Both the position numbers and the translations under genes were made by a program. A DNA stretch of 64,000 nucleotides from an uncultured Clostridia bacterium (GTDB lineage Bacteria > Bacillota > Clostridia > Christensenellales > Borkfalkiaceae), in NCBI GenBank assembly GCA_947630325.1, contig CANRHB010000001.1, forward strand, positions 93,579 to 157,578, written 5' to 3'. This document shows, piece after piece, positions 51,627 through 51,983 of this stretch. Within the stretch, counting starts at the first letter, position 1. Each line of letters begins with the position of its first letter. The notes below the pieces were generated by a model. It saw only the letters and a program-made list of their open reading frames with translations. It searched no databases and was not told where the DNA came from.

Positions 51627-51640
51627 AAGAATTCCGCACT

Positions 51641-51940
51641 CTCCCCTTGGCGCCCCTGTAGGGGAGCTGTCGCGCCCCGCGCGACTGAGGGGTTCTCGTA
51701 AAACCCTTTCCCCCGCTTCGCGGGTACTTTCCCTAAAAGGGACAGCAAGGGGCAAGCAAAACCCCCTCCTCGGGAGGAGGATCAAGGGGGTGGGCAAACA
51801 CTTGGCGTGAACACGCCACTCCGAACCACCCGCACTTGGCGCCCCTGTAGGGGAGCTGTCGCGCCCCGCGCGACTGAGGGGTTCTCATAAAACCCTTTCC
51901 CCCGCTTCGTGGGTACTTTCCCCAAAAGGGACAGCAAGCC
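51641..51940. repeat. mosaic palindromic-module cluster F (inside the groES-groEL spacer)
   Basis: Two ~100-bp M4-type units (51647-51746, 51835-51935) separated by M2 hairpin CCCCCTCCTCGGGAGGAGG. Confidence 0.9.
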
Positions 51941-51983
51941 CCTCTCATCAACATCAAAAAATATCAATCAGGAGTAAAATATC

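Follow-up and report, generated by a model that had tools for sequence, protein, structure and literature searches.

The genes of the chaperonins GroES and GroEL usually lie a few tens of nucleotides apart. In an uncultured Clostridia bacterium the two genes are separated by 357 nt of hairpin-rich DNA. How did this spacer arise, how is groEL expressed behind it, and has the structured RNA that would be made from it been put to use? The genome is a rabbit-gut MAG of 1.97 Mb in 40 contigs, with 54.6% G+C and a completeness of 91%. Positions given without a contig or locus label refer to the window, which is the whole 64,000-nt stretch of this genome that was analysed. An earlier, sequence-only reading of the window had recognized two units of a repeat termed M4 in the spacer, with a hairpin termed M2 between them. 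It had proposed that both genes are still co-transcribed and that the elements are tolerated or exploited at the RNA level. Our answer is that the spacer is probably a mosaic of selfish hairpin repeats of the REP/BIME/REPIN kind, which is tolerated and read through and is not a purpose-built regulator. We give this reading a probability of about three in four.

The operon and its surroundings are laid out as follows.

51265-51292, forward strand: sigma-70-type promoter TTGACG-16-TATAAT, with 11/12 consensus matches.
51342-51626, forward strand: groES, encoding Cpn10 of 94 aa (PF00166), with its stop codon TAA at 51624-51626.
51627-51983, forward strand: the groES-groEL spacer, 357 nt.
51627-51645, forward strand: 5' remnant AAGAATTCCGCACTCTCCC, the first 12 nt of which are common to the sister lineage G011/L112.
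51646-51749, forward strand: M4 copy a, a dispersed repeat of 104 nt with several hairpins, built as a degenerate inverted dimer (REPIN-like).
51759-51796, forward strand: M2 module, AACCCCCTCC-TCG-GGAGGAGG-ATCAA-GGGGGTGGGCA, oriented with its T-rich tail on the antisense strand.
51797-51834, forward strand: low-copy block 3, with 9 genomic copies of its core and the hairpin TGGCGTG-AA-CACGCCA at 51803-51818.
51835-51938, forward strand: M4 copy b, 104 nt, 97% identical (101/104) to copy a and in direct orientation to it.
51939-51983, forward strand: A-rich groEL leader, 45 nt, 33% G+C, with the SD AGGAG at 51970-51974, 9 nt before the ATG.
51984-53609, forward strand: groEL, encoding Cpn60 of 541 aa, with its ATG at 51984.
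53652-53680, forward strand: the operon's canonical intrinsic terminator, GGGCT-GAAA-AGCCC and then TTTTATTTTTT, as read directly from the sequence.
53694-53796, forward strand: a third full M4 copy, 14 nt 3' of the groEL terminator.

These coordinates bear out the earlier description of the spacer. Its length from the groES stop to the groEL ATG is as first given, the two M4 units lie within 1-3 nt of their earlier limits (51647-51746 and 51835-51935) and are nearly identical, and the AGGAG of groEL stands where it had been read. Between the units are the M2 hairpin and the block that had been singled out, AAGGGGGTGGGCAAACACTTGGCGTGAACACGCCA (51785-51819), which contains the 7-bp hairpin of block 3. 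Dispersed repeat DNA makes up about 297 of the 357 nt (51642-51938, 63% G+C), in the order M4, M2, block 3, M4. Every part of this insert recurs elsewhere in the 1.97-Mb genome, with 139 nhmmer matches for M4, 242 for M2 and the nine for the block 3 core, so the content of the spacer is not due to chance. No plausible open reading frame is found in it: the only small frames are two GTG frames of 22 and 27 codons, which are not conserved. At gathering level, Rfam models matched nothing but one tRNA across the whole window and nothing in the spacer, and the best spacer match of a permissive Rfam scan was drz-agam-1 with 17.7 bits against a cut-off of 37. The third M4 copy lies outside the spacer, between groEL and a convergent gene at 53818-54846.

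Within this genome, such an insertion is commonplace. M4 was counted by iterated nhmmer, and 79 of the 139 matches are full length. Genome-wide gene statistics were obtained with a home-made codon-usage ORF caller, which predicted 1469 genes and 83% coding DNA. M4 is intergenic in 130 of the 139 matches. It lies in convergent gaps 33 times and in divergent gaps 12 times (2.75-fold), while the background contains 219 convergent and 216 divergent gaps. M4 copies in same-strand gaps point with the genes (37) about as often as against them (32; p = 0.63). For M2, the orientation found in groESL, which is the non-terminating one, is favoured genome-wide by 76:42 (p = 0.002). M2 or M4 is present in 108 of 994 same-strand gaps (11%), and groESL is thus one such case among many in this genome. 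M2 and M4 are often neighbours, in either order, which amounts to a mosaic clustering like that of BIMEs. The whole M4-X-M4 composite of the spacer aligns with three other loci (on contigs C3, C4 and C11), and its M4-M2 part with at least nine.

M4 has a fixed frame with variable hairpins set into it. An alignment of 78 full copies contains the invariant segments CTYGGCGCCCC-loop-GGGGAGCTGTC, GACTGAGGGGTT, CCCTTTCCCCC and GGTACTTTCCCTAAAAGGGACAGCAAG. Between them are hairpins whose sequence changes while their pairing is preserved. The central hairpin exists in 25 variants in this genome. Among the matches listed from other genomes there are at least 72 distinct variants, with 447 Watson-Crick pairs, 13 G.T pairs and a single A.C pair; among these matches tandem G.A pairs also occur, and C-GNA-G triloops are the commonest loop class (21/70). 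The central hairpins were extracted by means of flanking anchors. This replaced RNAalifold on a MAFFT alignment of 65 copies, which was uninformative because hairpins of variable length misalign.

M4 matches itself on the reverse strand. When its left half is compared with the reverse complement of its right half, the score is 8.5, against -5.5 +/- 3.1 for shuffles with a maximum of 5.0. The same comparison in a copy from another phylum (L132) gives 35 matching positions out of 43. By these alignments M4 is a degenerate REPIN-like inverted dimer, the right half of which is a diverged inverted copy of the left. This structure explains the absent orientation bias. A strand-specific RNA role for M4 had been considered in view of the excess of G.T over A.C pairs (13:1) and of the GNA triloops on the groESL-sense strand. 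It was dropped because the second half of M4 carries a mirror-image hairpin on the other strand, M4 being a dyad.

The two units in the spacer probably did not arrive separately. Ranked by identity, the top five M4 pairs of this genome (97-99%, against a genome-wide median of 80%) all consist of direct neighbours at distances of 160-310 nt. They include the groESL pair, whose copies a and b are mutual closest relatives. Near-identical direct twins 160-330 nt apart are located at C3 81856/82063, C6 91860/92152, C7 90564/90875, C4 55366/55529, C11 31543/31866 and C2 97160/97486. This recurrent arrangement suggests that local duplication or gene conversion is a major way in which M4 multiplies. 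As mutual closest relatives within that pattern, the groESL units would be the product of such an event and not of two independent arrivals.

The comparison with relatives separates what is old in the spacer from what is new. In 77 diverse bacteria the median distance between groES and groEL is 29 nt, and in 29 species of the same genus it is 38 nt (most 12-100 nt), which agrees with the earlier statement that normal spacers are a few tens of nucleotides long. Only two spacers of the diverse set are at least 250 nt long, at 340 and 357 nt, and both are hairpin-rich fills in other Clostridia MAGs. The GroES protein is identical in several sister species. In the lineages with identical GroES, whose groES genes are 88-96% identical at the nucleotide level, the spacers measure 42 (L117, empty), 152, 275, 285, 309/316, 357 and 628 nt. 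A long hairpin-rich spacer is present in seven of these eight lineages, so that comparable spacers occur at the same site while their fill turns over. In pairwise BLAST the spacer of this genome has no more than its last ~55 nt in common with those of the other lineages, apart from a further 12 nt at the 5' end in the case of one, and the remaining fills form at least two further unrelated groups. The groEL leader is the sole part of the spacer that is conserved across the sister lineages. Judged from this conservation, the A-rich leader with the groEL SD is ancestral. Unrelated fills next to a common RBS leader indicate that the site has been repeatedly occupied and rewritten on the time-scale of species divergence, and that the leader has always been spared. 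An exact look-up of the GroEL protein returned no record of further strains.

Some other spacers deserve mention on their own account. Those of L082/L112 and L083/L116 (genomes G011 and G047) contain another element of ~170 nt with inverted arms GCGTCATTCCGAGCC ... GGCTCAGCATGACGC, which resembles REPs with a TGTC/CGTC tag more closely than M4 does. In Clostridiales MGYG-HGUT-00086 (L022:2644-3000) an unrelated 357-nt spacer contains a decayed second 3' end of groES (DGDEVTIVR*NDILAIVE*), and the insertion at that locus has duplicated or displaced the end of groES.

The reading that we favour is as follows. Repeats would have accumulated a dozen or so bases past the groES stop, 5' of the original A-rich RBS leader, and one M4 unit would then have been locally duplicated into the other. 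The elements would spread at the DNA level, and would persist at this site since they leave expression intact. The operon would keep a single promoter before groES and a terminator behind groEL, with RNA polymerase passing through the repeats and ribosomes initiating groEL independently on the unstructured leader. Selection would remove copies or orientations that terminate transcription. Side effects of the hairpin-rich RNA are probable by analogy, for example a 3'-exonuclease barrier that would make the groES segment more stable, like the REPs of malE-malF.

The signals around the spacer fit this course of events. The promoter at 51265-51292, 5' of groES, is the sole sigma-70-like promoter that a consensus scan found between 50900 and 54100. 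No terminator-like site is present on the sense strand of the spacer, where the longest T run is 3, in keeping with the earlier remark that no T-run terminator follows the units. M2 is terminator-like on the antisense strand only. The textbook terminator 3' of groEL indicates that this organism uses canonical terminators and that M4 is not one of them. The sole promoter 5' of groES, the lack of sense-strand signals in the spacer, the terminator after groEL and the retained A-rich SD leader together argue strongly that groES and groEL are co-transcribed through about 300 nt of structured RNA, as had been proposed. Since groEL is essential and has no visible promoter of its own, it would be expressed by read-through transcription and independent translation initiation. 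The clade has seven distinct long spacers. Sense-strand terminator-like sites are absent in six of them and a single weak one is present in the seventh, and antisense-strand terminator-like sites are present in five. This antisense bias and the orientation bias of M2 form the pattern expected of a filter against termination in an essential operon.

Could the structured spacer nevertheless have been co-opted? According to this alternative it would be an RNA device, such as a nuclease barrier, a processing site, a translational decoupler or a thermometer, which sets the GroES:GroEL ratio and for which any hairpin-rich fill would serve. The spacers of 150-630 nt in seven of eight lineages with identical GroES, all of them hairpin-rich and essentially free of sense-strand terminator-like sites, are what it would predict. 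The predicted fold of the spacer is more stable than those of 100/100 dinucleotide shuffles (z = -4.5). There is also a precedent, as the intercistronic REPs of malE-malF and hisJ-hisQ are 3'-exonuclease barriers that alter operon stoichiometry (PMC5927463, PMC12306157). On the other hand, one lineage with the same GroES manages with the empty 42-nt spacer and most congeners with 12-100 nt, the fills have little sequence in common and differ in length (152 to 628 nt), M4 lacks an orientation preference, and the same repeats fill 11% of same-strand gaps. We consider such a device unlikely. A conserved and dedicated regulator is not what these data suggest, because the fill is not conserved, an empty spacer coexists with an identical GroES and the same repeats are ubiquitous in the genome. 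For these reasons the sequence-only reading stands where it called the elements tolerated, and its other possibility, that they are exploited, is unsupported.

In the predicted fold the insert is mostly paired and the leader mostly open. The mean unpaired probability in the predicted ensemble is 0.70 for the leader versus 0.38 for the insert, and that of the SD bases is 0.3-0.5. In both the MFE and the centroid fold, a 5-bp pairing of AUUCC with GGAGU (51631-51635 with 51971-51975) closes the whole spacer and covers the groEL SD. A leader of the RNA-thermometer or riboswitch type would sequester the SD or AUG in a conserved structure. Here the 5' partner AUUCC is shared with a single sister lineage and is missing from most sister spacers, and the pairing is probably artefactual, a product of the energy model. 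With an SD that is predicted to be 30-50% unpaired and that pairs with the 5' end of the spacer in the MFE fold, some effect on translation is possible.

The loss of control by CIRCE bears on the alternative of a co-opted spacer. In a survey of loci L001-L120, a CIRCE operator lies 5' of groES in 34 of the 47 loci that are more distant (L001-L047, chiefly from relatives among the Clostridia). The groESL operon lacks it here (51176-51341) and in essentially every sampled species of the genus. No CIRCE/HrcA operator was found in or near the spacer, nor was any found within 3 mismatches across the window. A perfect CIRCE, TTAGCACTC-N9-GAGTGCTAA, is retained beside a partial hrcA at a contig end (C21:510), which makes another layer of control at groESL plausible. 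But the loss extends over the whole genus, whatever the length of the spacer. A bolder version would have selection keep the long hairpin-rich spacer as a sequence-independent RNA device after the loss of CIRCE. The device would be rebuilt from active repeats, among them M4 as an uncatalogued cross-phylum REPIN-like family with the invariant core TAGGGGAGCTGTC-hairpin-GACTGAGGGGTT, moved by a non-RAYT enzyme acting on folded single strands. We regard this as a long shot.

A further alternative would make groEL a transcription unit of its own, with a promoter in or derived from the repeats, and groES transcripts that stop within the hairpins. RNA polymerase can pause or be attenuated at GC-rich hairpins, as E. 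coli shows with its BIME-associated attenuation (Espeli et al., 2001, as cited in PMC12306157), and our promoter scan covered sigma-70-type consensus sites only. By that scan, however, the spacer contains no promoter-like site. The leader offers TATCAA as its closest approach to a -10 hexamer, which is without the invariant final T and without a -35. No hairpin of the spacer has a T run behind it on the sense strand, where at most three T stand together, and canonical terminators are in use in this genome, for example after groEL. The leader, moreover, appears to be ancestral and is unchanged in species with spacers of 20-40 nt, which are too short for a promoter. A separate groEL unit is thus very unlikely.

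An assembly artefact, by repeat-induced mis-joining or collapse, is the least credible explanation. It could be suspected in a 40-contig MAG with many near-identical repeats, in which many contigs end. But the genes on either side of the spacer are unique and single-copy and lie on a 388-kb contig, and a typical read is longer than a 104-nt unit. A 7.9-kb ENA contig (L120) that was assembled separately, and that may derive from the same sample as this genome, matches without a difference over 2809 nt, the entire spacer included. Independent assemblies of sister species have similar spacers between the two genes.

If the spacer is a mosaic of mobile repeats, as we favour, by what means do they move? 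The ends of M4 match at only 8 of 11 positions (CTTGGCGCCCC and CTTGCTGTCCC) and form no clear terminal inverted repeats. Among 66 copies, flank repeats of 2-8 nt are not in excess over shuffled pairings of flanks, and hence there is no sign of a target-site duplication. Lacking both features, M4 does not qualify as a MITE derived from a DDE transposase. No RAYT/Y1 transposase (PF01797) was found in this 91%-complete genome. Across 61 congeners, Y1_Tnp is present in 16 genomes and M4 cores number from 0 to ~255, being non-zero in 28. The two do not vary together: G011, G017, G047, G057 and G059 have 39-255 cores without Y1_Tnp, and most carriers of Y1_Tnp have 0-1 cores. Mobilization of M4 by RAYT is therefore unsupported.

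M4 is not confined to this genus. Its core, TAGGGGAGCTGTC-[variable hairpin]-GACTGAGGGGTT, occurs exactly in at least the Bacteroidota, Patescibacteria (Nomurabacteria and Saccharibacteria), Negativicutes, Bifidobacteriaceae and many Clostridia (loci L121-L200), where some of the taxon labels depend on MAG binning. Among the matches listed, the copies in other genomes often have the same inverted-dimer architecture. Collections of plasmids and phages contain no match to the M4+M2 combination, and a full-text literature search with the core sequences retrieved only unrelated primer matches. As far as this search went, M4 and M2 are undescribed elements. In the same genus, G017 has M4 cores in tandem arrays, with three units at a period of 53 nt (G017:C20:19246-19388) and four units at a period of 46 nt (G017:C20:20968-21133). 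This organization is unlike the dispersed dimers of the present genome. The recurrence of an uncatalogued core across phyla is a more interesting thread than the groESL insertion, and it merits a separate study.

The significance of the groESL locus is that even the spacer of a highly conserved and highly expressed operon has been colonized and repeatedly rewritten by what are probably selfish hairpin repeats. The only constraints that are visible are the retained RBS leader and the lack of a terminator facing the polymerase. With spacers of 42, 152, 275, 285, 316, 357 and 628 nt between an identical GroES and a near-identical GroEL, the clade also offers a natural series for the effects of intercistronic repeats.

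The closest known counterparts are the REP and BIME sequences in operons of E. coli and Salmonella (Higgins, 1982; Newbury, 1987; both as cited in PMC12306157 and PMC5927463). Like these, M4 and M2 are high-copy, GC-rich, hairpin-forming and extragenic and are clustered in mosaics with other motifs. M4 shares with them a preference for the 3' sides of genes, in convergent and same-strand gaps, and an intercistronic position. Known REPs are co-transcribed with their operon, as we infer for the repeats at groESL. The M4 unit differs in being 104 nt long with five small hairpins, whereas a REP is a single palindrome of 20-40 nt. It differs also in the absence of a RAYT and in its host, a Clostridia lineage in which such elements are uncatalogued. 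REPs of the GTAG and CGTC superfamilies have an unpaired GTAG or CGTC/TGTC head, an 8-9-bp stem that starts with A/T, a loop of 4-5 nt and a CCA-like tail (PMC3733652). M4 lacks the unpaired head, the A/T-first stem and the CCA tail. In its central hairpin the GTC of TGTC belongs to the stem (GTCGCGC/GCGCGAC), which continues with G/C or A, and the tail is TGAGGGG, so an assignment to the tagged REPs was rejected. Other modules in the window (TGTCATTCCGAG...) fit the CGTC type better and are absent from this spacer. REPINs are inverted REP doublets that are mobilized by RAYT (PMC8049555, PMC5581495). M4 resembles them as an inverted dimer of a ~45-nt unit with a self-match on the reverse strand, and in a copy number that ranges from 0 to ~255 between species of one genus. 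Unlike REPINs, it has no Y1/RAYT in its genome, its numbers are not tracked by Y1_Tnp and its halves are strongly diverged.

Longer structured repeats offer a second comparison. ERIC/IRU, the Correia elements (NEMIS) of Neisseria and the pneumococcal BOX elements are structured or modular repeats of 100-150 nt within transcription units. They are co-transcribed into mRNAs and can alter their stability or processing. The mosaic in the groES-groEL spacer is modular as BOX elements are, but M4 and M2 have no sequence similarity to any of the three. Correia elements have 26-bp terminal inverted repeats and a TA duplication, and M4 has neither. Another kind of mobile element is also found within groESL units, namely the group IIB1 introns in the groEL stop codon (Avi.groEL and EcKTE56.groEL). 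These are 3.2-kb self-splicing retroelements with their own reverse transcriptase and a precise target (bioRxiv 10.1101/2024.12.23.630110), and they are transcribed by read-through from the groE promoter. M4 and M2, by contrast, are short, non-coding and not site-specific. Set beside these systems, the groESL case is an ordinary and expected instance of REP/BIME-type behaviour, by a repeat family that had not been catalogued.
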